NCBI GenBank assembly: GCA_037442445.1
Contig: JBBIQF010000084.1
Coordinates: 1-37,241 of the forward strand
Reading direction: 5' to 3'
From: Planctomycetaceae bacterium
GTDB lineage: Bacteria; Planctomycetota; Planctomycetia; Pirellulales; Thermoguttaceae
DNA: 37,241 bases
Of this stretch, positions 8,020-26,204 are shown in pieces. Each line of letters starts with the position of its first letter. Position 1 is the stretch's first letter. The translations under genes were made by a program, and so were the position numbers. A model generated the notes under the pieces. It saw only the letters and a program-made list of their open reading frames with translations. It did no database searches and was not told where the DNA came from.

Positions 8020-8739
8020 ATGCGACGTTTCTTGCTGTACATCGTATTGCCGGCGCTGGCGATTGCCGGACCGCCCTTGGCCCTGGCCGGCTGGAAATGG
8101 TGGAAGGCCCACGGGGGCCGGTTGGCCTGGCCGGCGCTGGCGATTTCGTCATCGGGCCAATCGCCAAGCAACTCCGAAAACGAAGACGCGATCCTCCCTG
8201 GCCAGGCGCCTTGGGCCCAGGGGAGCAGCCCCGCTGCACCTGGGGCCAGCCCCGCCCAGCCACCAGACCCGTCGGGGCGCCGCACGGGTGCAACCGGCCC
8301 TGACGTGCCCGCCATCGAACTGGCCGAAGCGATCCGCTTTGACATCACCCCGGGCTGGGTGATGACGCGGTGGCCCCGGGTGTCGGCCGGCCTAGCCGAG
8401 CTTCAACTCCAAGGTTATCGCGTGCCGCTGGTGACCGGAACTGCCGAGGACGATCTTGCCGGGGCCTTGACGTACTACTTCAACCCCTGGCAGCAGGTCG
8501 AGCGGATCACGTTCCGCGGGACGACCGGCAACGCGGGAAAACTCATCGAGTATCTGGTGCGGCAATACCGTTTCGGCCGGCGCTTGACCAACGACCCGCG
8601 GATCGTGCGTTTCGAGGTCCCCGGGCCGCGGGGCGAACCCCACAGTTGGCTGGAAATCCGGCCCGCCGGCGTGGTCAAAGCCAGCGAACCGTTCCAGCGC
8701 CTCAGCGTGGTACTGGTGCTCAATCGGCCGAACGAGTAG
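8020..8739 (+). CDS. Hypothetical membrane-anchored protein
   Basis: N-terminal hydrophobic helix MRRFLLYIVLPALAIAGPPLALAG, a Ser/Pro-rich linker, then a globular-looking C-terminal domain (IRFDITPGWVMTRWPRV...YYFNPWQQVERITFRG). The start is uncertain (alternative ATG at 7945). No family recognised. Confidence 0.5.
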   Translation: MRRFLLYIVLPALAIAGPPLALAGWKWWKAHGGRLAWPALAISSSGQSPSNSENEDAILPGQAPWAQGSSPAAPGASPAQPPDPSGRRTGATGPDVPAIELAEAIRFDITPGWVMTRWPRVSAGLAELQLQGYRVPLVTGTAEDDLAGALTYYFNPWQQVERITFRGTTGNAGKLIEYLVRQYRFGRRLTNDPRIVRFEVPGPRGEPHSWLEIRPAGVVKASEPFQRLSVVLVLNRPNE

Positions 8740-8866
8740 CGCCCCGGCACATGGGCAGGGGCGCGACAGCGGCGGCCTGGAAGGCGCACCGGGGCCCCGA
8801 CGAGCGAGACATCCCGCCGGGCGAATAAGGGCCCGGCCACACCGGTTGCCACGGCTTGCGATTGCA

Positions 8867-10366
8867 CTACTTCCACAGGTCGAGGCCCGCCGGCAGCTTC
8901 ACCTCCGGCGGCGGCAGTTTCAGCGCGCGGGCAATCTCTTGCAATCGCCCCAGGATGGCCTCGGCCAGAGTGCTGGCGTAGTGGATGTTGTGTATCCCGT
9001 TGGCCGAGCGGAGGAAGGCCAGATCGTGCTCGACATCGGCCAGCCGGGCGCCCAGGTCCTTGGCCTGGGGCTCGGGCAGGGCCGCCGCCTGGAGGGCCGC
9101 GCGGACCTTCTTTGCCGCGTCTTCCAAAGCCGCCAGGGCCGCTTTCCACTGTTGGTGGTATGCCTGGAGGCGGGGCAAGGCGGCGGCTTCATGGCAGGAA
9201 CCGCACACCTGGATCGAGCCCTTCCACGTGACGGCCCCGGTGGGGCCCTCCTCCTTGTAGTGGTGGCACGTGCGGCATTCCAGCCGCACCGAAACCATGC
9301 CGTTGGTATGCGGCGGGATGCTCTTGCCGCCGGTACCCCGGAGCATGTTCACCTGGTCGCGATGATGGTCGGGATGGCAGGCCGTGCAATCCCCAGCCGC
9401 GTGTTCGATCTTCTGCTTGTCCAGCGAATGCTCGATGGCGAGGTGGCAGTCCAGGCAATCGATCTTGTGATCGGTAACGTGCTTCTGATGCAGGAAAACG
9501 TGGTCATCGATGCGGGCCAGGTCTTCCTCCCGGTTGTGGCATACGCCGCACCGTTCGTGGGGCACCTCGCCGCGTCCGCGGATGAGGTCGCCATGGCAGT
9601 TCGCGCAATCCACGCCCCGCTCGAAGGCCAGTTGATGGGTGAACACCGTGCCCCCGCCCAGGTCGAACTTCTTATCGGGGATTTCGTGGCAGCGGGTGCA
9701 GGCCCCCAGGCCTTCGTTGAACCGGCCCTCCTTGAAATGGCAGAGGAAGCAGGTCGTGGTGGTTACGGTCATGTGGCTCCCCTGGACGATCTGGCTGTGG
9801 CAGCTCGTGCAGCGAAGCCGCTTGCCGCGGCGCAGCTCGCCCAGATGCTGGGCATGATCGAACGGGACGCCATGGAAGTCCACCCGGCCGGACAGCAGCC
9901 GCGTCTCGTGGCAGCCGGACCGCAGGCAACTGGCATCGGGGATTTCGGCCGCCGGCCGGGGGCCTTCGCTCTGCGTAACGTACTTGGCCAATTGCACCAA
10001 TCCCAAGAGCTTGCCCCGCACCTTGCCCCCGAAGCCGGGCGGGAAGTGGCACTCGATGCACGACACATCGCGGTGCGAGGAGGCCTGCCACGACTGGTAA
10101 TACGGCTCCATGATGTGGCAGCTCCGGCAGAACTCGGGGCGCGAGGTGTACCATCCGGCGGCGAAGGTGCCGAACATGCCCACCAGCAAGACCACGCCTG
10201 CCAGGGCCGCCAGCCGAACCAGCAGCCAGCGGGCCACATGCCCGGCGCGCCGCACGCCCGGGTGGCGCTGGAGCCAGGCCCGCCAGCCGCCGCCGGCTGG
10301 GCCGGATTCCGGGGCGGCGCCGGATTCCGGGCTGCCCCCGAGCATTTCGGCAGATTCGTCAACCAT
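8867..10366 (-). CDS. Membrane-anchored multihaem cytochrome c with NapC/NirT-type N-terminal module (11 CXXCH + 1 CX4CH)
   Basis: A TM helix is followed by CRSCHIMEPYYQSWQASSH and CIECH, the NapC/NirT/NrfH-type head. Nine further CXXCH motifs follow (CTSCH, CFLCH, CTRCH, CANCH, CGVCH, CLDCH, CTACH, CRTCH, CGSCH), plus CLRSGCH (CX4CH). The C-terminus is a helical region with GIHNIHYA. The ATG at 10366 has a strong GGGAGGTG 6 nt upstream; an alternative ATG lies at 10411. Confidence 0.85.
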   Translation of the reverse strand: MVDESAEMLGGSPESGAAPESGPAGGGWRAWLQRHPGVRRAGHVARWLLVRLAALAGVVLLVGMFGTFAAGWYTSRPEFCRSCHIMEPYYQSWQASSHRDVSCIECHFPPGFGGKVRGKLLGLVQLAKYVTQSEGPRPAAEIPDASCLRSGCHETRLLSGRVDFHGVPFDHAQHLGELRRGKRLRCTSCHSQIVQGSHMTVTTTTCFLCHFKEGRFNEGLGACTRCHEIPDKKFDLGGGTVFTHQLAFERGVDCANCHGDLIRGRGEVPHERCGVCHNREEDLARIDDHVFLHQKHVTDHKIDCLDCHLAIEHSLDKQKIEHAAGDCTACHPDHHRDQVNMLRGTGGKSIPPHTNGMVSVRLECRTCHHYKEEGPTGAVTWKGSIQVCGSCHEAAALPRLQAYHQQWKAALAALEDAAKKVRAALQAAALPEPQAKDLGARLADVEHDLAFLRSANGIHNIHYASTLAEAILGRLQEIARALKLPPPEVKLPAGLDLWK

Positions 10367-10465
10367 CGATCGCACCTCCCGGGCGCCCGTCGGCGCACCG
10401 GATCTACCCATCCCAGCGAAAGCGTTTCCCTCTTGCCCAAACCGCGCGGTCGCCGCCGGCCACCG

Positions 10466-13126
10466 CTATTTCTCCAAGCCGGCCACGATCATCGCCACCA
10501 ACAGCCCAAGCCCGATGGCCAGCGCCGTGAAGCCCAGCAGGCGCACCGTCCACAGTTTCCGCCGCGAGGGGACAAGTGCCCGCCGGGCTTCCAGCTCGCC
10601 GTTGGCCCGCAGGCGCTCGTAGAAATCCGGCCGCTCGTGCCGCAATTCGTCCTCGCTCACCAGGCCCGTCAGGGCCGACAAATCGGCCGGGAACTTATCC
10701 GGCCGGAAGTGCGTGTTGAAAAAGTGCACCGCAAACACGAACCCCGTGGCCAGTAGCGCCTGCGTGGAATGGATCACCTTGGCGATATTGAGGGTCACGG
10801 CGGGCAGGAAGGCGGTCAACAACTGCGGGAACCAGAGCACCAGGCCGGTGAAGCCGATGATCACCACGTCGGCACAGGCGCCCCAGAAGTCGAACTTCTC
10901 CCAGTAGGTCCAGCGCTCGAAGCGCGGCCGGGGCCCCAGCCCGAAAAACCACCGCAGCATCCGCACCAGGTCTTTCACGTCGCGCCAGTTGGGCACGGGC
11001 GAATCCGGGCCGAAGATCGCCTCGCGCAGCGACCCGTTCCGCCGGTGGCGGACCACGTGCCGGATCATCCGCCCCACATACACGAAAAAGCAGCCGAACG
11101 TCACCACCGCGAAGATGCGGTGCCACACGCTGGTCGATTGGAACCCTCCCAGGGCATAGGCCAGCGACTTGGCCCACTGGGTGTCGCTGTACTTCAAAGG
11201 CAAGCCCGTCAAGGCCAGCCCCAGGAACGAGATCAAAAGGCACCAGTGGCTAATGCGGTGGAAGGGGACGAAGCGCACATAGGCCGGCTCGCCCGGCCGG
11301 AGCCCCCGCGGCCGGCCGTTCTGCCACACGTCGACAAGGCTCCGAATGAACCATAGCACCGTGTGCACGCCGAAGACGGCAAACACCGTCACCAGCAGGG
11401 TCATGAAGAATAGATACACCCCGTGTACCAGCCGGCTCCGCTGGGGATCGGTGTGATCCAGGTGGGGATCGAACTTCAGGAAGTTCCCGCCGGTGACCAT
11501 GTGGCACTGGCCGCAGGTCTGGGCCCGGTTGGCGGGCGAGAGCGTGGAGTTCGGATCCGCCACCGCCAGAATTTCATGGGCGCCGTGGCAATCGGAACAC
11601 TTGGCCGCCGGCCCATACCCCAGTTCGGTCAACTGGCCGTGCAGGCTCATGGCGTAGCTGGTCGAGAGGTTGGCGTGGCAGTTGCCGCAGCGGTGCGGCA
11701 GCTCCTGGCGGAAGGCGGCCGACTCGGGGTGCACCTGGTCGTGCCCCTGATGGCAATCGGTGCAACTGGGCTTGCGCCGCGACTTGCCGCCGGGGGCCTG
11801 CCGGTCGGCAATCGCCCCGGCCCCGTTGCCCCGCGCATGTACGCTCTTCTCCAACCACTCCTCGATAAAGCGGTGGCACTTGCCACAGGTGTCGGCCACG
11901 CGCGTGGGGTGCAAGGTGGACTTGCTGTTGCCCGGGTAATAGATGCCGTGCGACCCGTGGCAGTCGGCGCACACCGCCGTTACCTGGAGTCCCGATTTGT
12001 ACAGCCCGTGGCCATGCACGCCGCTGCGGTAGGTGTCCAGATCGTTCTTGTAGGTCTCCAGGCGCTGGCGATGGCAATTGTCGCAGGTGTTGACCTGGTT
12101 ATCGGGAAACAAGGGAGACCGCGGGTCGCGCCAGGCGATCAAATGGTGCAACGTCGGGCCGTGGCACTTGCTGCACTCCAAGGGCGTGCCCCGGCCAAGC
12201 TCGTCCCGCTTCTCGCCGGCCTTGCCGTGCACGCTCTCGTTGAGCTGCGCGTACTGCTCCCTGTGGCAGTGGACGCACGCTTTGCGGACCTCGGCCAGCG
12301 GCTGCCGGAACCCATCCTCCACCGCGTGCGCCATGCGAAGGTCCGGCTCCTGATAATTGCCGCCGTGGCAATCATGGCAATTGACGCCCCGGGCGAAGTG
12401 GACATCCTCGGCCAGTTGGTCCTTGGGAACGTACAGCCTGCGGTTGGCCGCGTCCCACAGGTCCGAATCGCCGTGGCAGGTCAAGCACTGGTTTTGGTCC
12501 GCGGGCACCTGGGATCCTTTGGGCGGCGGCAAGGCGGCCGCTTTGGGCGGGGCCTGTGGCTCCGGGGTCGCCGCGGCGGCTCCAGGCGCTTTGGCGGGGG
12601 CCTTCTCTTTGGCAACAGCCGGCGCAGGTGGACCAGCGCCCGGTGGCGGAGGAGGCGGCGGCACCGTCTTGGCCCCGCCGGCCGGAGGGGGCGGAGGCGG
12701 TGTAACCTTGGCTCCACTCGGGGGAGGCGGCGGAGGCGGCGCGCCTTTGGACTCGCCCGCCGGAGGTGGCGGCGGAGCCTTCGCGCTATCCGGTGCGGGA
12801 GGGGCCGGCAGCGGCATCGTGCCTTGAGCCGCCGGCGCAGGCGGCGGGGGTGGCGGTGGCGGCGCAGGCGAGTCGGACGGGGGCGGCCCCGACTGCTGGG
12901 AGGGCTTCGGCGCGGGGCCGGCTGCGGAGGATTCCTCCACAGCCTTGGGAGCCTCGGGAGCAGAACCGGGCTTGCTAGCCGGTGGTGGCGGAACCGCCTT
13001 GCGGGCCGGGGGAGGGGGCGGTGGCGGCGCAGGAACCGCGCTCTCCGAAAAGAGGCCGGCCGCAGCCCATACGCCGGGCCCCGGCCCGACCGCAAGCGAT
13101 AGAACGATCACCCCAAGCACATTCAT
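10466..13126 (-). CDS. Fusion protein: signal peptide + ~175-aa polyproline spacer + 11-haem cytochrome c domain + C-terminal multi-span b-type cytochrome domain (FdnI/HydC-like)
   Basis: Begins MNVLGVIVLSLAVGPGPGVWA, followed by the Pro-rich region. It has 11 CXXCH motifs, several in the paired C..CH..H...(about 20 aa)...C..CH arrangement. The C-terminal ~330 aa carry about 6 hydrophobic helices with candidate haem-b His ligands (FHRISHW, VWHRIF, KVIHST, FAVHFF). The upstream part of ORF 10466-13360 looks non-coding. Confidence 0.85.
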   Translation of the reverse strand: MNVLGVIVLSLAVGPGPGVWAAAGLFSESAVPAPPPPPPPARKAVPPPPASKPGSAPEAPKAVEESSAAGPAPKPSQQSGPPPSDSPAPPPPPPPPAPAAQGTMPLPAPPAPDSAKAPPPPPAGESKGAPPPPPPPSGAKVTPPPPPPAGGAKTVPPPPPPPGAGPPAPAVAKEKAPAKAPGAAAATPEPQAPPKAAALPPPKGSQVPADQNQCLTCHGDSDLWDAANRRLYVPKDQLAEDVHFARGVNCHDCHGGNYQEPDLRMAHAVEDGFRQPLAEVRKACVHCHREQYAQLNESVHGKAGEKRDELGRGTPLECSKCHGPTLHHLIAWRDPRSPLFPDNQVNTCDNCHRQRLETYKNDLDTYRSGVHGHGLYKSGLQVTAVCADCHGSHGIYYPGNSKSTLHPTRVADTCGKCHRFIEEWLEKSVHARGNGAGAIADRQAPGGKSRRKPSCTDCHQGHDQVHPESAAFRQELPHRCGNCHANLSTSYAMSLHGQLTELGYGPAAKCSDCHGAHEILAVADPNSTLSPANRAQTCGQCHMVTGGNFLKFDPHLDHTDPQRSRLVHGVYLFFMTLLVTVFAVFGVHTVLWFIRSLVDVWQNGRPRGLRPGEPAYVRFVPFHRISHWCLLISFLGLALTGLPLKYSDTQWAKSLAYALGGFQSTSVWHRIFAVVTFGCFFVYVGRMIRHVVRHRRNGSLREAIFGPDSPVPNWRDVKDLVRMLRWFFGLGPRPRFERWTYWEKFDFWGACADVVIIGFTGLVLWFPQLLTAFLPAVTLNIAKVIHSTQALLATGFVFAVHFFNTHFRPDKFPADLSALTGLVSEDELRHERPDFYERLRANGELEARRALVPSRRKLWTVRLLGFTALAIGLGLLVAMIVAGLEK
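12512..13036 (-). repeat. Polyproline low-complexity coding region (runs of 6-8 Pro separated by short A/G/K/S-rich segments)
   Basis: Translated residues ~31-205 of the fusion cytochrome, e.g. APPPPPPPARK, APPPPPPPPAP, GAPPPPPPPSGAKVTPPPPPPAGGAKTVPPPPPPPGAG. Confidence 0.9.
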
Positions 13127-13311
13127 CCTGGACGATCTCCCGATAGGCTCGCGACACCTGCCACCCCCGCGCCTGTTGGCCCCGCTGCCTATCGCGCCGG
13201 GGCCCAAAAGGGGATGACCGCATCGGCACTCGATTTGGCCGGCCAACCACGGCCAGCCAAGCGCAGTGCTGTTGGAATCTCCGGCCGCTTTCAAGGCTGG
13301 CCGGCGAGACC

Positions 13312-13413
13312 GGCAGCTTACGCCGGCTCCATCTCCGGAAGCTTCTCGCTTGCCTGCCACACGGGCAGCTTACGCCGCCGGCTCCAAAGGCAGAGCTTGC
13401 GCTGCCGGCTGCG
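13312..13413. repeat. Triplicated GC-rich motif in the intercistronic spacer of the minus-strand cytochrome operon
   Basis: GGCAGCTTACGCCGGCTCCA (13312-13331). GGCAGCTTACGCCGCCGGCTCCA (13364-13386), identical apart from a GCC insertion. A degenerate third copy GGCAGAGCTTGCGCTGCCGGCTGCG (13389-13413). Confidence 0.7.
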
Positions 13414-13422
13414 GAGGGCGGG

Positions 13423-13980
13423 TTACTGCTTTTCGTACTTCGGATGCTCGTGGTGTCCCTGCGTCAGGTGGCAGCGGGCGCAAATATTGCCCGGCAGTAC
13501 CTTGTAAATCGAATCCCGGGCGATTTTTTCCTGTTCGGGGCTGAGTTTCTTGACGTTGAGGAAGGGCTTGCACGCCTCTTCATGCTTGCTCCCCGGCCCG
13601 TGGCACGCCTCGCAGGTGACGCCCAACAGGTTCTGAAGCAAGTCGGGCGTAGCGCCGGCCGCATACCCCCCTTCGTGCCCGTAGGCGGTGACGTGGCACT
13701 TCATGCATTCCGGATCGGCCTGGTATTTGGTGGGCATCTCGGTGAACGCGGTGGCGTGTTTGGTCTTCTTCCAGGCCGTGTACTGCTTGAAGTGGCAGGA
13801 TGAACACCGCTTCACACCGACATAGGTCTGGCCCGTGGGCGGGGCGGGTTCCGGGGCGGCTTGTTCCTCAGGGGGTTGCGCGGGGGCCGAGTGGGGTGTG
13901 ACGCCAAGCATCCACACCGCCCAACCCAAGATCACCACCACCGCACCACGATAGAGCCAGGGCGACGACATCCGGATCAT
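13423..13980 (-). CDS. Tetrahaem cytochrome c (cytochrome c554-like small multihaem family)
   Basis: Signal/anchor MIRMSSPWLYRGAVVVILGWAVWMLGV and four CXXCH motifs (CSSCH, CMKCH, CEACH, CARCH). The first sits in the context CSSCHFKQYTAWKKTKH. GAGGAG lies 8 nt upstream of the ATG. Confidence 0.85.
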   Translation of the reverse strand: MIRMSSPWLYRGAVVVILGWAVWMLGVTPHSAPAQPPEEQAAPEPAPPTGQTYVGVKRCSSCHFKQYTAWKKTKHATAFTEMPTKYQADPECMKCHVTAYGHEGGYAAGATPDLLQNLLGVTCEACHGPGSKHEEACKPFLNVKKLSPEQEKIARDSIYKVLPGNICARCHLTQGHHEHPKYEKQ

Positions 13981-14551
13981 GGACTTCGCTCCTCAAGCAA
14001 CTGGGGTGGAAAAACAACACGTCACACGCCGTTCAGGCCAAGCTAGCCTGGGAGTGCTTTTGGGCAGCGGAAGAAAGGGCGGCCGGCCGCCCCATGGCGC
14101 CACATCGAAGCCACGGACACCATGCGCAAGCATGGACCAGCTCTTCCTCCCGGCGGGCGAGCCGCAGAGCACCGGGCTCCTGCCACCAGCAGGCTTTCCC
14201 TCTCGGGGAATCGTCCGCGGTGGGAAGCAGGCGCCGGCGTCCTGCCGCGACCCAACCCTTTGCAACGACCAACGAGCGGTCCCGTTCGCCGGAGGCGCGG
14301 GATTCGGGCCCCGCACAGCGCTTCCTTGCAGCTCCGGCCGTGCCTCGGAAACACTCGGATTCGTAAACCTACTAGATCGCGGGGCATTCGTCAACTACCC
14401 GCCGCCAACTGCCCGGCGGGATTGCACGGAGGAGCCTGCGAAAAATCGCCCGGGACCGAGCGATACGGCTACGCCGCCGGAGAGCGGCCCGGCCAAGACG
14501 CGGCCGTTTGGCCTAATCGCCATAATTTACCTATTTGCTAACGTTTATTAC

Positions 14552-14580
14552 TTGACTCCATTCGGCTCCTCTGCTACAAG
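14552..14580 (+). promoter_or_regulatory. Candidate promoter TTGACT-N17-TACAAG with AT-rich upstream element, ahead of the Rieske/cyt b operon
   Basis: TTGACT at 14552-14557, 17-nt spacer, TACAAG at 14575-14580. It is preceded by the only AT-rich stretch of the region (cataatttacctatttgctaacgtttatta, 14521-14550) and lies about 50 nt upstream of the Rieske ATG. Confidence 0.45.
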
Positions 14581-14630
14581 GGGCACTGCACCATGCGGCG
14601 TTACTGCTTCCACCTAGGAATGAGGCATCG

Positions 14631-15110
14631 ATGAGCGACTCTCCCACACCCGTGCCGCGGCGAAATTGGTTGCTGCGATTGCTTCAGTGGAGCATCGCGG
14701 CCAGTGTCGCGGCCATCTTCTATCCGGTGGTGCGGTTCCTCTGGCCCCGCCCGGCCACGGTCTCCGGGGCGGCCGAGGTGACCGCACCGTTCACTGTCGA
14801 GGAACTCAAGGCTCGCTATGCCCGGGGCGAGGTGCCGCCACCGTTCAACTTCGACAACAAGCCGTGTCTGGTGGTGCTACTTCCCGACGGCGAAATCCGG
14901 GCGTTCAATGCCATCTGCACGCACGTGGCCTGCACGGTGGCATTCCGCCTGGACAAGAAGGACATCTTCTGCAACTGCCACAACGGGGTGTACGATCTGA
15001 ACGGGCAGCCGGTTTCCGGGCCGCCTCCCCGGCCCCTCCAGGCGTACAAGGTCATCCGGCGTCGCTTGCCCAACGGGCAGGAGGAGATCGTTGTCTCACG
15101 CACCGCTTGA
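14631..15110 (+). CDS. Rieske [2Fe-2S] subunit of a cytochrome b6f/bc-type complex
   Basis: Twin-arginine-like N-terminus (PRRNWLL) plus a TM helix. Rieske cluster boxes CTHVAC and CNCHNG. Confidence 0.9.
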   Translation: MSDSPTPVPRRNWLLRLLQWSIAASVAAIFYPVVRFLWPRPATVSGAAEVTAPFTVEELKARYARGEVPPPFNFDNKPCLVVLLPDGEIRAFNAICTHVACTVAFRLDKKDIFCNCHNGVYDLNGQPVSGPPPRPLQAYKVIRRRLPNGQEEIVVSRTA

Positions 15111-16317
15111 AAGTGCCCTGCCCGCCATGCCGCCGGGCAGCCGATGGAAAACCTTCCTCGACGAGCGCCTAGGGCTGGATGCCCTCGCGCAACTGGCCGA
15201 GAAAAAGCGGGTGCCGGTCCACCGGGCCACCGTGTTCTATTTTCTCGGCGGGATGGCCCTGTTCTTGTTCGGCATCCAGGTGGTGACCGGCATCCTGCTT
15301 TCGCTGTACTACAAGCCCTCGCCCGACCAGGCCTTCGAGAGCGTGCGGGCCATCATGACCGAGGTGGAGTTCGGCTGGCTGATCCGCTCCATCCACAGTT
15401 GGAGTGCCAATCTGCTGATCGGCGTGCTGTACCTGCACCTGTTGACCACCTTCATCGTGCGGGCCTATCGCCGGCCGCGCGAGTTCACCTGGATCACCGG
15501 GCTGGTGCTCTTGGCCCTGTTTCTGGCCTTCGGGTTTAGCGGCTACCTGCTGCCCTGGAACCAACTGGCCTTCTTCGCGACCAAGGTGGGCACCGATATC
15601 GCTGGCGGGGTGCCGCTGGTGGGCAAGTACATGCTGCTTTTGGCCCGCAGCGGGGAGGAAGTCACCGGCGATACGCTGGCCCGATTCTATTCGCTCCATG
15701 TGGTCATTCTGCCGCTGGTCACGCTGGCGGTGTTGGGGGTGCATCTCTATCTGGTGCAGAAGCACGGGATGAGCATCCCGCACCCGGTGATCCGGCGCTA
15801 CGGGGGCGAAGAGAAGGTGCCTTCGATCCCCTTCGTGCCCCACTTTTTGCTCCGCGACATGGTGGGCTGGTATGTGGCGTTGGGGCTCTTGGCCGTGCTG
15901 GCCGCCCTGTTCCCCTGGGAACTGGGGGTCAAGGCCGACCCATTCGGCTCCGCCCCGGAGGCGATCCGGCCCGAGTGGTACTTCCTGTTCATGTTCGCCA
16001 CGCTGGAGCAGACACCCTCGCACGTGTTCGGCCTGGAGAACAAGCAGGCGGTGGTCCTGTTTTTCAGCCTGGTGGGGCTGGTGGTGCTCTTGGTGCCGTT
16101 TCTGGATCGGGCCGCTGCCTGGGGCGGACCGCGGCGGGTGCTCAGTTTTCTGGCCACTTGGGCCGTGTGCGCGTTTGTCGTCCAGACGGGCGTGGGCCTG
16201 GGGCTTTTGGATTTCCATCTGGGGACTTCGGTGGCCACCAGCGGTATAGCGGCCGTGGTGCTTGCCGCGGGGTATGTGGCGTATTGTCGCTTTGCTGGCC
16301 GGGAACAGTGCTCATGA
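15091..16317 (+). CDS. Cytochrome b (fused cytochrome b6 + subunit IV-like)
   Basis: The N-terminal half matches cytochrome b6 (YFLGGMALFLFGIQVVTGILLSLYY...SIHSWSANLLIGVLYLHL...GYLLPWNQLAFFATKV). The C-terminal half carries the Qo-site PEWY motif (RPEWYFLFMF). A TTG at 15091 follows AGGAGGAG by 4 nt and overlaps the Rieske gene by 20 nt; an alternative ATG lies at 15127. Confidence 0.9.
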   Translation: MSHAPLESALPAMPPGSRWKTFLDERLGLDALAQLAEKKRVPVHRATVFYFLGGMALFLFGIQVVTGILLSLYYKPSPDQAFESVRAIMTEVEFGWLIRSIHSWSANLLIGVLYLHLLTTFIVRAYRRPREFTWITGLVLLALFLAFGFSGYLLPWNQLAFFATKVGTDIAGGVPLVGKYMLLLARSGEEVTGDTLARFYSLHVVILPLVTLAVLGVHLYLVQKHGMSIPHPVIRRYGGEEKVPSIPFVPHFLLRDMVGWYVALGLLAVLAALFPWELGVKADPFGSAPEAIRPEWYFLFMFATLEQTPSHVFGLENKQAVVLFFSLVGLVVLLVPFLDRAAAWGGPRRVLSFLATWAVCAFVVQTGVGLGLLDFHLGTSVATSGIAAVVLAAGYVAYCRFAGREQCS

Positions 16318-18083
16318 AACAAGCCGTGCACCTGTGGGTTTTGGGCGTGGGGCTAGCGGCCGTTTTGTCCGGTTATGCCGGGGGGCCGGATGGGTGGCTG
16401 TTTTCGTCGGCGTTGGCCGCGGCAGAACCGAGCGCGGTGCCTCCCCCGCCCCCGCCACCCCCGCCGCCGGTGGCGACGAAAAAACAGCCGGCTGCCGAGA
16501 AACCGGCAGCAGCGCCCCCCGCCCCACCGCCGCCACCCCCACTGGCGAAGCCCGGGGAAAAGGTTGTAACGCCGCCACCCCCGCCGCCGGTGGCTAAGCC
16601 GGGCGAGAAGGCGGTGGCACCTCCCCCAGCCGCGCCACCCCCGCCACCTCCTGTGGCCAAGCCAGGGGCCAAACCCCCAGCAGCCCCACAACCGGCCGGG
16701 CCTTCCAAGCCCGCTGCCAAGGCGGCGGCCGCGGGTGGTACCCGGCCTAACCAATGCCTCGATTGCCACGGCAACCCCGAGGTCTGGGAAGGCCCGCAGC
16801 TTCGGCTGCATGTGACCCAGAAGGACACGGCGGCCGATGTGCACTGGCAAAAAGGGCTCCGCTGCGTCGACTGCCACGGCGGCAACCCCGAGACCGACAA
16901 GGTGAACGAGGCGCATGCCGAGGAAGACGGCTTTCGCCGATTCCGCCCCGATGGCGACTACACCAAACCGCCCGACCCGCTGGTCGTCGTCCAATTGTGC
17001 GGCGAGTGCCACGCCGATATCCAGCGGATGCGGCCGTTCAATCCCCGCGCGCGGGTGGACCAATTGCAGGAGTACTGGACCAGCGGGCACGGCCGGCGGC
17101 TTAAGGAGGCCAAGGACCGCGAGGTGGCCACGTGCGTCTCGTGCCATGGCCGGGCACATGGGACCGCGGCCGATCGGGGGCCTCACGGCGTCCGTCTGGT
17201 GGCCGATCTCGACTCGCCCGTGTATCCCAAAAACGTGGCCAAGACGTGCGCTACCTGCCACGCTGACGAAAAGCGGATGGCCGGGCGCGAGTATCACGGC
17301 CGGCCCATCGGCCACGAGCAATATGCCCAGTGGTCGCGGAGCGTCCATGCCGAGACGCTCTTGGAAAAGGGGGACCTTTCGGCCCCCACCTGCAACGACT
17401 GCCACGGCAACCACGGGGCCTTGCCCCCGGACGTCGATTCGGTGGCCAACGCCTGTGGCACCTGCCACGGCAAGGTGGCCAGTTTGTTTGCCGCCACGCG
17501 AATGAAACACGCCTTCGAGAAGGCCGGGCTGCCCGGCTGCGCCACCTGCCACGGTGCGCACGAGATTCACCATCCCACCGTGGAAATGCTGGGGATGGAG
17601 GAGGGCGCGGTATGCGTGCAGTGCCATGCGCAAGGGAAGTACGGGGCCACGGTGGCCGGCGCCCAGGCCGCCCGGCGATTCCGGGGCGATCTGGATGCCC
17701 TGCGGGAAGAGATCGCCGCGGCCGAGGCCACGATCGAGATGGCCGAGCGGTTGGGCATGGCCATCCCCGGCCCGGCGAGCGATCCCCGCACCGATGTGCG
17801 ACTCCACCTGCGCAAGGCCAGCGATGCCCTGACCGCCGCCCGCGTCGAAATCCACAGCTTCGCCGCCGAGCCGCTGGAGAAAATCCTCGATTCGGGCCGG
17901 CAAATCGCTGCCGAAGCACAACAAAGTGCCGAGACCGCCATCCGCCAGTATCACGCCCGGCGGGTCTGGCTGGCGGCGTCGCTGGTGCCCATCGTGCTGG
18001 TCATCGGGGTGCTGCTCTTGTATATCCGCAGCCTGCCTCCCGTGCCGCTCCCGGGCGAAACGCCATCTGCCCCGCAGGCGTAA
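16314..18083 (+). CDS. Nonahaem cytochrome c with N-terminal polyproline spacer and C-terminal membrane anchor
   Basis: The ATG overlaps the cytochrome b stop (ATGA at 16314-16317). Signal peptide, Pro-rich residues ~43-135, and nine CXXCH motifs (CLDCH, CVDCH, CGECH, CVSCH, CATCH, CNDCH, CGTCH, CATCH, CVQCH). C-terminal TM helix WLAASLVPIVLVIGVLLLYI. Confidence 0.88.
   Translation: MKQAVHLWVLGVGLAAVLSGYAGGPDGWLFSSALAAAEPSAVPPPPPPPPPPVATKKQPAAEKPAAAPPAPPPPPPLAKPGEKVVTPPPPPPVAKPGEKAVAPPPAAPPPPPPVAKPGAKPPAAPQPAGPSKPAAKAAAAGGTRPNQCLDCHGNPEVWEGPQLRLHVTQKDTAADVHWQKGLRCVDCHGGNPETDKVNEAHAEEDGFRRFRPDGDYTKPPDPLVVVQLCGECHADIQRMRPFNPRARVDQLQEYWTSGHGRRLKEAKDREVATCVSCHGRAHGTAADRGPHGVRLVADLDSPVYPKNVAKTCATCHADEKRMAGREYHGRPIGHEQYAQWSRSVHAETLLEKGDLSAPTCNDCHGNHGALPPDVDSVANACGTCHGKVASLFAATRMKHAFEKAGLPGCATCHGAHEIHHPTVEMLGMEEGAVCVQCHAQGKYGATVAGAQAARRFRGDLDALREEIAAAEATIEMAERLGMAIPGPASDPRTDVRLHLRKASDALTAARVEIHSFAAEPLEKILDSGRQIAAEAQQSAETAIRQYHARRVWLAASLVPIVLVIGVLLLYIRSLPPVPLPGETPSAPQA
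16440..16718 (+). repeat. Polyproline coding repeat (10-Pro run, then three copies of PPPPP[LV]AKPG[EA]K)
   Basis: DNA reads cct ccc ccg ccc ccg cca ccc ccg ccg ccg (10 consecutive Pro codons), followed by PPPPPPLAKPGEKVVT / PPPPPPVAKPGEKAVA / PPPPPPVAKPGAKPPA. Confidence 0.9.
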
Positions 18084-22956: not shown

Positions 22957-23202
22957 CTACCCGCCGCTTACCGGGGGGATGCAGGCCAGCCTGGCGCCGT
23001 CGGGCAGCGGCTGGCCATCGCCCAGGTACTGGTCCTCCAGCGCGAACATCATGGCCGGCAGCAAGGGGGCCAGGACCGGGCAGACTTCCGCCAGCCGGCG
23101 GCGGAGGTCGGCCACGGTGGCCCCTTCGGCCAGGTCGATGGCGATCGCAGGCCGGCCCGCGACCTGCCGCGCTACCGCAAACAACTGCACCTCGACCCTC
23201 AC
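22957..23202 (-). CDS. moaD: Molybdopterin synthase sulfur-carrier subunit (MoaD/ThiS fold)
   Basis: An 81-aa ubiquitin-like protein ending in the obligatory C-terminal GG (IPPVSGG). The GTG start overlaps the upstream gene's stop as GTGA (23199-23202). Confidence 0.85.
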   Translation of the reverse strand: MRVEVQLFAVARQVAGRPAIAIDLAEGATVADLRRRLAEVCPVLAPLLPAMMFALEDQYLGDGQPLPDGARLACIPPVSGG

Positions 23203-26200
23203 GTGACGACCCGCTCCTTTCCCGTAGCGCTCAGCAGGCTTTCGACCTCCGGCAGCAACCCGTAGCTATAGGCCAAAAGCTTGATGGGATGGATGGTGGG
23301 CTTGCTGGTGCCCTGCTCCATCTGGATCTTGCAGGTGCTGCACTCGGTGGTGCCCGCCTGGATATCGGGATGGCGGAGCCGGCAGATCAGGTTCCAGCCG
23401 ATCCGCAGACTGGTGCGGTAGTGCTCGCGCCTTAGGCCGAACATGCCCGCCATGCCCGAACACCCCTCCTCGATCCGCATGACGGTCAAGCCGGGGATCA
23501 ACCGCAGCAGGTTTTCGCCCGGCGAGCCCACTTCCAGGGCTTTCAGCCGGCAGGGCATGTGGTAGCCCAGGGTGGCGCTTATGGGCCGCAGGTCGAGTTG
23601 CAGCCGGCCCTGGGTATGCATGCGCCAGAGGTAAGTGCACGCCTCGCTGGTGTGGCTGGCCACCAGGCGCGCATCGTCGTCGTCCAGCAGGGCGAGGTAT
23701 TCGCGGATCAAGCACAAAGCCGCCGCCGGCTCGGTGGCCACGATATGGTAGCCCTGGCGCACGGCCTCGGCCAGCACCGAGACATTGTGATGGGCCACGC
23801 GCCGGGCGAAATCCAGCTCGCCCAGCGACAAAGCGCGCAGTCCAGAATCCTTCTGATCCGGGGGCACATACACCGCCACCCCGTTGTGTTCCAGCACCGC
23901 CACCAGGGCCTGGCCAAGCTGCGGATCGTGATAGTTGGCATAGGCATCCACGAAATAGGCCACCTTGTGGCCGGTGCGGCGCGTGGGGCGGGTCAGGCGC
24001 CGCCGTGCCGCCCGGCGCACAAAGCTCCGTGCCGCCACGCGCGGCAGCTTGCGCCCCTGGGCGATCCCCAGCAGTTTTTCCAGAAGCCACCGCATCTGCC
24101 GGTTCTCCAGGGCCCAGTTGACCACCGGCGCCAGCCGGCCCCCCAGCATCCCCAGCAGGTCCAGGCGGATCAGCGCCGCTTCGGAAAACCGCAGGCCCTT
24201 GGCCGCCACGTAGGCGCCTTTGCTTTCGACCATCAGCCGCGGGATATCGACCCGCGCCGGGCATTCCAGGGCGCACATGTGGCAGTTGAAGCAGAGGTCG
24301 GCCACGGCCTTGAACTCGGCGCTGGTGAGGCTTTGCAGGCTCACCCGGCCGGTGATCACCCCGCGCACCAGGTTCGCTTTGGCCCGCGGCGAGGCCTCTT
24401 CGGCCGGCAGCACCCGGAACATGGGGCACATTCGGCTGTCGGGCGCCTGGGTGCGGCAATCGCCACAGCCGTTGCACGATCGCACCAAGTCGGCCGCCTG
24501 CCCCGGGTTCCAACTGAGCTGCAATTCGATGAGGTCGCGGAGCGCAGGCCGGTCCGGCTCGTCCGCCGGGGCATCCCGGGCGGCCTTGGTCTCGGGCACC
24601 GGCGGGCGCACAGAGGCGGTGATCGTCCCCTGCCCGTCGCCGATCACCTTGCCGGGGTTCAACAGGTTCTGCGGATCGAGAATCGCCTTCACCTGGCGCA
24701 TCACTTCGTACAGCTCGCCGTACTGGCGCCGGAGGAAGGGGGTGCGGCTGAGCCCCGCCGCATGTTCGCCGCCGAGGATGCCACCGACAGCAAACACCTG
24801 CTCATACAGGTCCTCGGCCAGGCACTGCATCGTGCGGACCTGCTTGGGATCCGAAAGGTTGAGGAAGGGCTGCACGTGCAGTTGTCCCTGGCCGGCATGG
24901 GCGAACACCGAGGCCACCACCTCATGCCGCTTGAGCAGGTTCTGCAACCGGACCAGAAAATCCGAAAGGGCCTCGGGGGGGACGACGATGTCCTCGACGA
25001 TGGGCACCGGCTTGGTGCATCCCCGCAGCGTGATTCGCCGGGCCAACTGCCAGAACAATTCGATCTCGGCCGGATCCAGGGCCTGCCGGCTTTCGATGGC
25101 CAAGCGGCGGCGCCGGCAGATTTCCTCGGCCAACCGGTAGGTCCGCTCGCGGACCTCCACCAGGCGGTCGCCGTCCGTTTCGACCAGCAGGGCGGCCTCG
25201 ATATCGCGGGGAATGAGCAGCTCGAACCGCGGGTCGTTTTCGCGGGCCAGGCTGAGGTGGCGCCGGTCCATCAGGTCGCACGCGCTGGGGCGGTGCGGGA
25301 GCACCTCCAGCACCGCACGCGTGGCACTGTCGAGGCTGTCGAACAGTAGCAGCGTCACGCCCCGGTAACGCGGCACAGGCTCGGTACGCAGGCGGGCCTC
25401 GGTCACCAGGGCCAGCGTCCCCTCGGAGCCGGTCAGCAGGCGGGCGAAGTCGAAATAGTCGTCGGCCAGGACCTCGGCCAGTCCGAAACCGCCGGGATGC
25501 ACCGGCGTGCGGGGCTGGGCAGCGCGAATCACCGCGGCGTTTTCCCGCACCACGCGGACCAGGGCGTTGATGAGGTCCCGCTTGCGGGGATGCGGGTCCT
25601 GGCTGGCGCCGTCCACCAGAGGTTCGCGCCCTGCCTGGAGGACGGTTCCATCGGCCAGTACCACCTCCAGTCCCAGCACATGCCGCCGCGCCGAGCCATA
25701 TTTGAGCCCGTGGCTGCCGGCGCCATCCACCGCCACCACGCTCCCCACCGTGGTCACGGTGCTGTTGCCGGGGTCGGGGCCGAACAGCCGGCCCCGCTTG
25801 CGCAGGTGATGGTTGAGGCGTTCGAGCACCAATCCCGGCTGGACCCGCACCCAGTCGTCGCCGGTCTGGAGGATGCGGCGGAGATAGACGGAAAAATCCA
25901 GAATCAGCCCGGGACCCAGCGCCCCGCCGGCCACCCCGGTGCCGGCCCCCCGGGCGTGCAGGGGGATTTGCTTTTCGGCCGCGTATTGGGCACAGGCGGC
26001 CACGTCGGCGGTCGAGCGCGGGCGGACTACCCCCAAGGGGGCGATTTCGTAGATGCTGCCATCGCCCGCAAAAAGCTGGACGAACACCTCGTCGCAGCGG
26101 ACCTCGCCGGAAACCAGGCCGCGGAGGTCGTCCAGGATGCGTTCGCGCTCGTGCTCCCAACCGGCCATAGGGGCCCTACGCTCCCGGCCCAAGCTGCGGG

Positions 26201-26204
26201 CCAT
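23199..26204 (-). CDS. FAD-binding oxidase fused to a (Fe-S)/CCG-domain module (GlcD-GlcF-like 2-hydroxyacid dehydrogenase fusion)
   Basis: N-terminal FAD_binding_4-type region (PRSTADVAACAQYAAEKQIPLHARGAGTGVAGGA). Two ferredoxin-type clusters (CNGCGDCRTQ...CP, CFNCHMCALECP). The C-terminal Cys-rich CCG-type repeats include CSGMAGMFG and ECSTC. The size (~1000 aa) is typical for this fusion. An alternative ATG lies at 26168. Confidence 0.85.
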   Translation of the reverse strand: MARSLGRERRAPMAGWEHERERILDDLRGLVSGEVRCDEVFVQLFAGDGSIYEIAPLGVVRPRSTADVAACAQYAAEKQIPLHARGAGTGVAGGALGPGLILDFSVYLRRILQTGDDWVRVQPGLVLERLNHHLRKRGRLFGPDPGNSTVTTVGSVVAVDGAGSHGLKYGSARRHVLGLEVVLADGTVLQAGREPLVDGASQDPHPRKRDLINALVRVVRENAAVIRAAQPRTPVHPGGFGLAEVLADDYFDFARLLTGSEGTLALVTEARLRTEPVPRYRGVTLLLFDSLDSATRAVLEVLPHRPSACDLMDRRHLSLARENDPRFELLIPRDIEAALLVETDGDRLVEVRERTYRLAEEICRRRRLAIESRQALDPAEIELFWQLARRITLRGCTKPVPIVEDIVVPPEALSDFLVRLQNLLKRHEVVASVFAHAGQGQLHVQPFLNLSDPKQVRTMQCLAEDLYEQVFAVGGILGGEHAAGLSRTPFLRRQYGELYEVMRQVKAILDPQNLLNPGKVIGDGQGTITASVRPPVPETKAARDAPADEPDRPALRDLIELQLSWNPGQAADLVRSCNGCGDCRTQAPDSRMCPMFRVLPAEEASPRAKANLVRGVITGRVSLQSLTSAEFKAVADLCFNCHMCALECPARVDIPRLMVESKGAYVAAKGLRFSEAALIRLDLLGMLGGRLAPVVNWALENRQMRWLLEKLLGIAQGRKLPRVAARSFVRRAARRRLTRPTRRTGHKVAYFVDAYANYHDPQLGQALVAVLEHNGVAVYVPPDQKDSGLRALSLGELDFARRVAHHNVSVLAEAVRQGYHIVATEPAAALCLIREYLALLDDDDARLVASHTSEACTYLWRMHTQGRLQLDLRPISATLGYHMPCRLKALEVGSPGENLLRLIPGLTVMRIEEGCSGMAGMFGLRREHYRTSLRIGWNLICRLRHPDIQAGTTECSTCKIQMEQGTSKPTIHPIKLLAYSYGLLPEVESLLSATGKERVVT

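Follow-up and report, generated by a model that had tools for sequence, protein, structure and literature searches.

A Planctomycetes member of the CbcL/MtrH/MtoC family: an 11-haem cytochrome c fused to an FdnI-type membrane domain

Introduction

The cytochrome CbcL of Geobacter sulfurreducens (GSU0274) joins a nine-haem cytochrome c part to a dihaem-b domain of six helices (PMC6295460, PMC9129911). Its periplasmic part contains nine low-spin bis-His haems, has an apparent midpoint potential of -194 mV and donates electrons to PpcA (PMC9129911); acceptors below about -100 mV require CbcL (PMC9129911; Zacharoff 2016 cited there). Zhong and Shi (2018) defined a CbcL/MtrH/MtoC family from 15 phyla, with members of 416-1034 aa that carry 3-23 CXXCH motifs and mostly six transmembrane (TM) helices, in which the TM His residues are conserved; their list included two Planctomycetes proteins, each with 11 motifs (PMC6295460). 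A lake survey has also noted CbcL homologues in metagenome-assembled genomes (MAGs) of Planctomycetota. Here we describe a gene for a c/b fusion protein of this kind, at 10466..13126 on the minus strand of contig JBBIQF010000084.1 (Planctomycetaceae bacterium, assembly GCA_037442445.1). It lies in a stretch of 37,241 nucleotides that was analysed as a whole and that we refer to as the window.

The fusion protein of 886 aa belongs to the CbcL/MtrH/MtoC family, which had been catalogued before and is widespread across many phyla, Planctomycetes among them. It has an exported domain with multiple CXXCH motifs, a six-helix membrane domain, a likeness to HydC and FdnI that extends to their His residues, and similarity to named members of the family. 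We consider it likely that the protein sits in the inner membrane and connects the menaquinone pool with multihaem cytochromes of the periplasm.

Results

A first-pass annotation, made by a model from the letters and a list of open reading frames (ORFs), had described the locus as a single 886-codon ORF, and our delimitation of the gene confirms this. The minus-strand frame is open from 13360 and runs from an ATG at 13126 to the stop codon at 10466-10468, with a GC content at third codon positions of 0.83. This start is backed by a hydrophobic segment (MNVLGV...) followed by PAPPPPPPP, which is shared with relatives of 89-93% identity. When the DNA is aligned with that of an orthologous locus (L001), conservation starts at the same ATG; the DNA upstream of it is not conserved and has indels whose lengths are not divisible by three. 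Long antisense ORFs, such as 11423-13102 on the plus strand, were dismissed as GC-rich artefacts on the basis of codon-position GC. The deposited NCBI gene call for the same contig (P0121, 680 aa) begins at the GTG of V207 and leaves out 12508-13126 on the minus strand. The deposited model is N-terminally truncated, and both the signal peptide and a Pro-rich spacer are missing from it. Maturation of a c-type cytochrome that lacks such a peptide would not be possible.

An ORF of this composition could in principle arise from an assembly error or a frameshift that reads a multihaem c gene and a separate cytochrome b gene as one. We found nothing in favour of this explanation and assign it next to no probability. 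Our homologue alignment comprises 119 full-length sequences, and the same continuous architecture is found over 95-100% of the query in all 119 of these independent homologues. Continuous fusions are likewise encoded in candidate stretches of at least 575 contigs from species-representative genomes in many phyla. Because the fusion is full length in every one of the 119 homologues, the 886-aa ORF is not a frameshift artefact.

The periplasmic domain spans residues 206-560 (11447..12511, minus strand), as delimited by CXXCH motifs, Pfam matches and conserved His residues. All 11 of the CXXCH motifs counted in the first-pass annotation were found, at residues 214, 250, 284, 318, 348, 386, 414, 455, 480, 510 and 538; composition shuffles average 0.03 motifs and never exceed 2. 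Every Cys of the periplasmic part (22 of 22) lies within one of these motifs. The doubled pattern CHGxH...CxxCH, which had also been remarked on, recurs at 386/414, 455/480 and 510/538, and the domain matches Pfam Paired_CXXCH_1 (E 7.6e-6) as well as the c7/c3 models. Its matches in the PDB are only generic haem-packing modules, those of NrfA, MccA, OmcA/MtrC, NrfB and HAO. The protein does not belong to the NapC/NirT/NrfH family: its PF03264 score of 20.9 bits is under the cut-off of 24.1 and comes from an internal haem region only.

Outside the motifs, 11 His residues of the domain are invariant among the homologues (H243, H267, H300, H327, H371, H393, H430, H462, H496, H517 and H555). No Met of the c domain is invariant, or conserved at 90% or more, in the MAFFT alignment of the 119 sequences. 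This combination fits 11 bis-His electron-transfer haems without an open catalytic site, and these conserved positions make bis-His ligation probable for all 11.

Residues 203-886 were modelled with AlphaFold2 from 119 sequences. The model has a mean predicted local distance difference test (pLDDT) score of 90.6 and a predicted TM-score (pTM) of 0.79; the c domain is among its confident parts. The first-pass annotation had counted about six hydrophobic helices with four well-spaced His residues. The model contains six long helices, at residues 565-603, 621-645, 661-697, 741-765, 777-807 and 855-885, with which hydropathy agrees, and the four residues named then are H627 (RISHW), H669 (VWHRIF), H786 (KVIHST) and H801 (FAVHFF). 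The first helix, TM0 (residues 565-603; 11318..11434, minus strand), is a family-specific linker. It leads into an FdnI/HydC-like four-helix dihaem-b domain (residues 616-810; 10697..11281, minus strand), which holds all four His residues and an ERWxYWEKFDFWG motif. The sixth helix is a C-terminal TM helix (residues 855-885; 10472..10564, minus strand), in which G865, G872 and L875 are conserved among the homologues.

The assignment of the membrane part to the FdnI type is supported by both sequence and fold. In the profile search that the first-pass annotation had proposed as a check, residues 620-802 are recognised by PF01292 (Ni_hydr_CYTB, the model for the FdnI/HydC family) at E 2.2e-9; the score of 37.8 bits exceeds the gathering cut-off of 30.1. 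Among PDB sequences, no structure of the CbcL/MtrH/MtoC family was matched, and the sole match for the membrane part is Escherichia coli FdnI (1kqf_C), which the family profile hits at E 2.7e-5. The same chain is the top PDB match of the model in Foldseek (E 8e-6; TM-score 0.81 normalised to FdnI; root-mean-square deviation 3.5 Å). In the HMMER alignment H627, H669, H786 and H801 lie opposite the FdnI haem-b ligands H18, H57, H155 and H169, and the ERWxYWEKFDFWG loop aligns with the region of FdnI N110-Q113. Three of these His residues, H669, H786 and H801, never vary among the 119 homologues, and H627 reaches at least 90% conservation; in 11 relatives of 35-40% identity that come from other phyla, none of the four varies. 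Another His, H806 (or H804), sits close to where the fifth helix ends on the cytoplasmic side and is nearly invariant. A fifth membrane His, H588, lies in TM0 (window 11360-11362, minus strand) and is invariant in the 119 close and the 11 distant relatives alike. Lys and Arg residues number 6, 13 and 11 in the loops on the predicted cytoplasmic side versus 2, 1, 0 and 1 on the periplasmic side; this positive-inside distribution therefore places the haem-c domain outside and the bundle in the orientation of FdnI. The first-pass annotation had named three ways in which it might fail, and the analysis points away from each: the membrane domain falls in a haem-binding family, its four His residues are conserved, and the ORF is one gene.

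Resemblance to FdnI raises the question of whether the protein is a gamma subunit, that is, the membrane anchor of formate dehydrogenase-N or of a hydrogenase-type enzyme, which happens to carry c haems. Database labels lean this way for many homologues, which JGI calls 'cytochrome b subunit of formate dehydrogenase'; other labels in use are 'cytochrome c3 family protein' and 'hypothetical protein'. The NCBIfam models for FdnI, FdoI and HydC (TIGR01583, NF007924, NF007558) also give weak matches of 28-36 bits. However, these scores are far under the equivalog cut-offs of 116-341 bits, which indicates an FdnI-type domain and not an FdnI orthologue. Neither the window nor four Pfam-marked related loci contain fdnGH, hya or phsAB genes, and the haem-c domain fills the position that catalytic subunits would take. 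We consider a gamma-subunit role extremely improbable.

At the N-terminus, residues 1-21 form a putative signal peptide (MNVLGVIVLSLAVGPGPGVWA, followed by AAG; 13064..13126, minus strand). The segment is conserved at the N-terminus of relatives (homologues P0001-P0004, P0122-P0127 and P0131), and cleavage between VWA and AAG is plausible at this predicted site. A Pro-rich, low-complexity spacer with imperfect 13-aa repeats follows at residues 27-205 (12512..13048, minus strand). Pro accounts for 40% of residues 25-200, in agreement with the polyproline region of the first-pass annotation. Inside the spacer is an imperfect tandem repeat of 39 bp (13 codons) in 3.3 copies (window 12640-12772), which suggests that the spacer has grown by repeat expansion. 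It is confined to the closest clade, with homologues of 846-915 aa, while most homologues have 700-760 aa. The appendage is thus a clade-specific low-complexity spacer. It is a habit of the lineage, since the cytochrome of a neighbouring Rieske/cytochrome b (bc) complex carries one too. The extra appendage is real, as had been claimed; the novelty implied for it is not supported.

The family is large. At E <= 1e-5 the protein matches more than 2256 cluster representatives, and the 120 best of these are full length (840-1539 bits), 97 of them with 11 CXXCH motifs. Species-representative genomes contain at least 575 candidate stretches that code for relatives. The best 80 of these have 34-62% identity in the best aligned segment, and nearly all span almost the whole query. 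Their hosts belong to Planctomycetota (Pirellulales, Thermoguttaceae, Phycisphaerae), Acidobacteriota, Bacteroidota, Chlorobiota/Ignavibacteria, Gemmatimonadota, Myxococcota, Burkholderiales, Gammaproteobacteria, Thermodesulfobacteriota, Omnitrophota, Elusimicrobia and others; no Geobacter is among the best 80. A tblastn search of plasmids matched only Loktanella FdnI genes.

Haem numbers vary widely in this group. Among 82 complete relatives we counted 8 motifs (1 relative), 9 (1), 10 (8), 11 (23), 13 (3), 18 (2), 19 (38) and 21 (6), and the last three haem spacings, 25/30/28, are kept in 69 of the 82. Two betaproteobacterial loci (L029 and L073) were considered as MtrH/MtoC orthologues and rejected, being 11-haem forms and not of the nine-haem MtoC type. 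The first-pass annotation was right that the haem count exceeds that of CbcL (11 versus 9). It is nevertheless unremarkable, because these 82 best relatives run from 8 to 21 and the published family range is 3-23.

One of the two Planctomycetes proteins already catalogued is OHB84720.1, from Planctomycetes bacterium RBG_16_64_12, which is listed in Table S2 of Zhong and Shi (2018) as a CbcL/MtrH/MtoC homologue (PMC6295460). Its identity to the target is 56% across 671 aligned columns (E 0.0), and it falls in the 90% cluster of homologue P0115. Since a protein this similar was already listed in 2018 and relatives are abundant, the novelty of the locus had been overstated. The claim of an uncharacterised lineage holds insofar as none of its members has been studied experimentally, but Planctomycetes proteins with this architecture were on record in 2018.

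CbcL itself was compared through four fragments of the supplement alignment of PMC9129911, derived by optical character recognition, and not over its full length. The fragments are colinear with target residues 616-647, 678-709 and 712-750. The best of them, PNFRDIKD...FERWYWEKFDF against PNWRDVKD...FERWTYWEKFDF, scores 148 compared with 30.7 +/- 5.1 for shuffles, a difference of about 23 standard deviations; two of the four fragments (b and d) do not score above shuffles.

The gene for the fusion is flanked on the same strand by two further cytochrome genes. Upstream is a c554-like tetrahaem cytochrome of 185 aa with four CXXCH motifs (13423..13980, minus strand; PF13435, E 8.6e-14). Downstream, 55 bp from the stop codon of the fusion, is a membrane-anchored NrfH/NapC-like cytochrome of 514 aa (8867..10411, minus strand). 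The latter scores above the PF03264 threshold (E 1.6e-11, 44.7 bits) and reaches 59.8 bits with the NrfH model TIGR03153, under the cut-off of that model. It has one TM helix, 11 CXXCH motifs plus a CX4CH, and a first motif of the NrfH type, CXXCHXM (CRSCHIM). By these features it is a predicted second quinone-interacting module beside the fusion. A scan of 8300-14700 for promoters and terminators found sites no more often than in shuffles, so the operon boundaries are drawn from strand and spacing only.

The order c554-like gene, fusion gene, NrfH-like gene is kept in Planctomycetes relatives of 50-90% identity. We surveyed 84 related loci together with their flanks, which extend as far as 8-10 kb in either direction if the contig is long enough. 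An NrfH-like homologue is present in the flanks of about 30 of them and directly downstream in about 17, and this pairing reaches Phycisphaerae, Acidobacteriota and Elusimicrobia. In Desulfuromonas acetexigens, the homologues of ImcH and CbcL have consecutive accession numbers, which is a precedent for pairing a CbcL-type with a NapC-type module.

In Planctomycetes, the three-gene cluster usually adjoins divergent genes for a Rieske protein, cytochrome b and a multihaem cytochrome c. In the window the last of these is a bc-complex cytochrome at 16314-18083 on the plus strand, with nine CXXCH motifs and a C-terminal TM anchor; its ATG overlaps the cytochrome b stop codon (ATGA). The cytochrome opens with a signal peptide and then a poly-Pro spacer of about 130 aa, and its first haem module is clearly paralogous to that of the fusion protein. 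Given this paralogy, and an adjacency seen in the window, in most Planctomycetes relatives and in some loci of Acidobacteriota and Bacteroidota, the fusion could be an accessory subunit or partner of the bc complex, forming a supercomplex with its nine-haem cytochrome and offering no independent exit from the quinone pool. This is very unlikely in our estimation. Rieske and cytochrome b genes are lacking from the flanks of 64 of the 84 related loci, and the fusion has a complete quinone-type module of its own. Cytochrome maturation genes cluster in the same place, which suggests that the region is a general island of cytochrome genes and not the locus of a single complex.

Two further observations concern the surroundings. 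In more distant Planctomycetes relatives, a protein of 735-797 aa without a Pfam match and a multihaem cytochrome of about 500 aa adjoin the cluster, beside ResB/Ccm maturation genes (L002 11753-15558, L003 12213-16192, L004 11775-15675). This pair could be an outer-membrane conduit; the window contains no equivalent of it. Elsewhere in the window, at 23199-26204 on the minus strand, a 1001-aa protein fuses an FAD-linked oxidase (PF01565/PF02913) with 4Fe-4S dicluster and CCG domains. It is GlcD/HdrD-like and unrelated to the c/b fusion.

Discussion

The data above demonstrate the order of the domains, their topology, an FdnI fold and conserved ligands. The phrase 'self-contained quinol:multihaem oxidoreductase', used in the first-pass annotation, is drawn from homology and may well describe the protein. 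In this topology the 11-haem domain, once exported, lies in the periplasm, and TM0 carries the chain from there to the cytoplasmic side. The FdnI-type four-helix bundle follows, with its four conserved His residues placed as are the ligands of the two stacked b haems of FdnI, and the sixth helix brings the C-terminus back to the periplasm. The FdnI structure reported by Jormakka et al. (2002) serves as the template for the pairing of haem-b ligands and for the position of the quinone site. By analogy with it, H669 and H786 would bind the haem b on the periplasmic side, and H627 and H801 that on the cytoplasmic side. A quinone site may lie at the cytoplasmic face, by the cytoplasmic-side haem and near the conserved ERWxYWEKFDFWG loop. 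With b haems on both sides and the quinone site at the cytoplasmic face, electrons would therefore cross the whole membrane.

The usual direction of electron flow is probably menaquinol oxidation, as the genetics and biochemistry of CbcL and the heterotrophic lineage suggest. Protons would then be released inside, and electrons would travel outward, first through the b haems and then along the 11 c haems, until they reach periplasmic cytochromes, whether soluble or anchored. The c554-like tetrahaem cytochrome, probably co-transcribed, is the obvious candidate acceptor. The membrane potential would assist such outward flow, which would suit low-potential acceptors at some expense of yield. The NrfH-like 11-haem protein could provide a second quinol exit, on the periplasmic side, analogous to the ImcH/CbcL pair of Geobacter.

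Several observations weigh against this proposal. In the membrane domain, the gap between H786 and H801 is 15 residues versus 14 in FdnI. The register of the fourth ligand depends on the aligner: HMMER sets FdnI H169 opposite H801, MAFFT opposite H806. We set H806 aside and kept H801, because H801 is invariant and H806 is replaced by Asn in one relative. The aligned segment of FdnI (residues 12-201) has no residues opposite TM0, and H588 is without a counterpart there. The sequence likeness to CbcL was read from fragments. The window carries genes for neither an outer-membrane conduit nor a terminal reductase. Finally, sequence does not reveal the direction of electron flow, and MtoC of Fe(II) oxidisers belongs to this family as well (PMC6295460).

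This last point leads to the reverse reaction. The same protein with the same cofactors could work mainly as a quinone reductase, like MtoC or formate dehydrogenase-N. Electrons from periplasmic or extracellular donors would then pass through the 11 c haems and the two b haems to menaquinone at the cytoplasmic face, with uptake of cytoplasmic protons, and the protein would form one half of a redox loop that generates proton-motive force. FdnI, the structural template, reportedly works in the quinone-reducing direction and so runs exactly in this way. Within the family, no sequence feature separates oxidases from reductases (PMC6295460). Moreover, the spacings of the last four haems fit MtoC/MtrH and not CbcL. 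On the other hand, the lineage, that of Thermoguttaceae/Pirellulales MAGs, is known as organoheterotrophic; the window encodes neither a donor-oxidising enzyme nor an MtoAB-type conduit; and the co-encoded NrfH-type protein is of a quinol dehydrogenase type. We regard a mainly reverse function as unlikely, if by no means far-fetched, and retain menaquinol oxidation as the usual direction.

A more unusual possibility, to which we give only a small chance, is that the H588 helix and the conserved three-gene set beside the bc complex together make up an undescribed respiratory module. In such a module H588, which would sit at the depth of the cytoplasmic-side haem, could belong to a third membrane cofactor or to a quinone site unlike that of FdnI. 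The NrfH-type partner would make the whole a dual-exit or coupled two-quinone-site system. If true, this would be a route for extracellular or low-potential respiration in ordinary, non-anammox Planctomycetes.

Regardless of these readings, the locus adds a well-supported and correctly delimited Thermoguttaceae-like Planctomycetes member to the CbcL/MtrH/MtoC family. The practical value lies in annotation, as the deposited model is without its signal peptide and homologues are inconsistently labelled. The three-gene module and the invariant H588 provide concrete handles on how the quinone pool is coupled to periplasmic haem wires in this family.

Compared with CbcL, the target shares an N-terminal periplasmic multihaem domain, bis-His in CbcL and probably so here, fused to a six-helix dihaem-b domain of the HydC/FdnI type. 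In CbcL the CXXCH motifs are at 34, 57, 82, 105, 129, 158, 186, 229 and 257 and the six TM helices begin at 285, 351, 399, 477, 511 and 589 (PMC6295460, Table S2). Helix spacing is similar in the two proteins, as is the gap between last haem and first helix (28 versus 32 residues), and they have in common the membrane motifs YxRF...GLPLK(Y/F)S, FGPDS and PN(F/W)RD(I/V)KD...RWF...GPxPxFERWxYWEKFDF. CbcL differs in having nine haems rather than 11, with a last-module spacing of 28/43/28 as opposed to 41/25/30/28 in the target. It has 619 aa, whereas the target has 886 owing to its Pro-rich spacer of roughly 180 aa. The two also come from different phyla, and the target neighbours c554-like and NrfH-like genes in place of the Geobacter context.

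MtoC and MtrH (Dechloromonas Daro_1404, Gallionella Galf_2006, Rhodoferax Rfer_4073) belong to the same family and have the same six-TM layout, and the spacing of their last four haem motifs (25/30/28) is identical to that of the target. Unlike the target, they have nine haems and are encoded beside the mtoAB/mtrAB outer-membrane conduits, which are absent from the window.

For OHB84720.1, the aligned columns cover the whole of the haem and membrane parts, with shared motifs at nearly the same spacing. Ten CXXCH motifs align in the deposited call, whose start cuts through a further one. That call is itself N-terminally truncated (it starts MCHGEADLW) and so differs from the target in having neither a Pro-rich spacer nor a signal peptide.

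FdnI (cytochrome b556 of E. coli formate dehydrogenase-N, 1KQF chain C) resembles the target in its four-helix fold, the positions of its haem ligands and its orientation in the membrane. Identity is about 18%, and FdnI is a separate subunit that works with FdnGH. To this shared core the target adds TM0 with H588, a C-terminal helix and a fused 11-haem domain.

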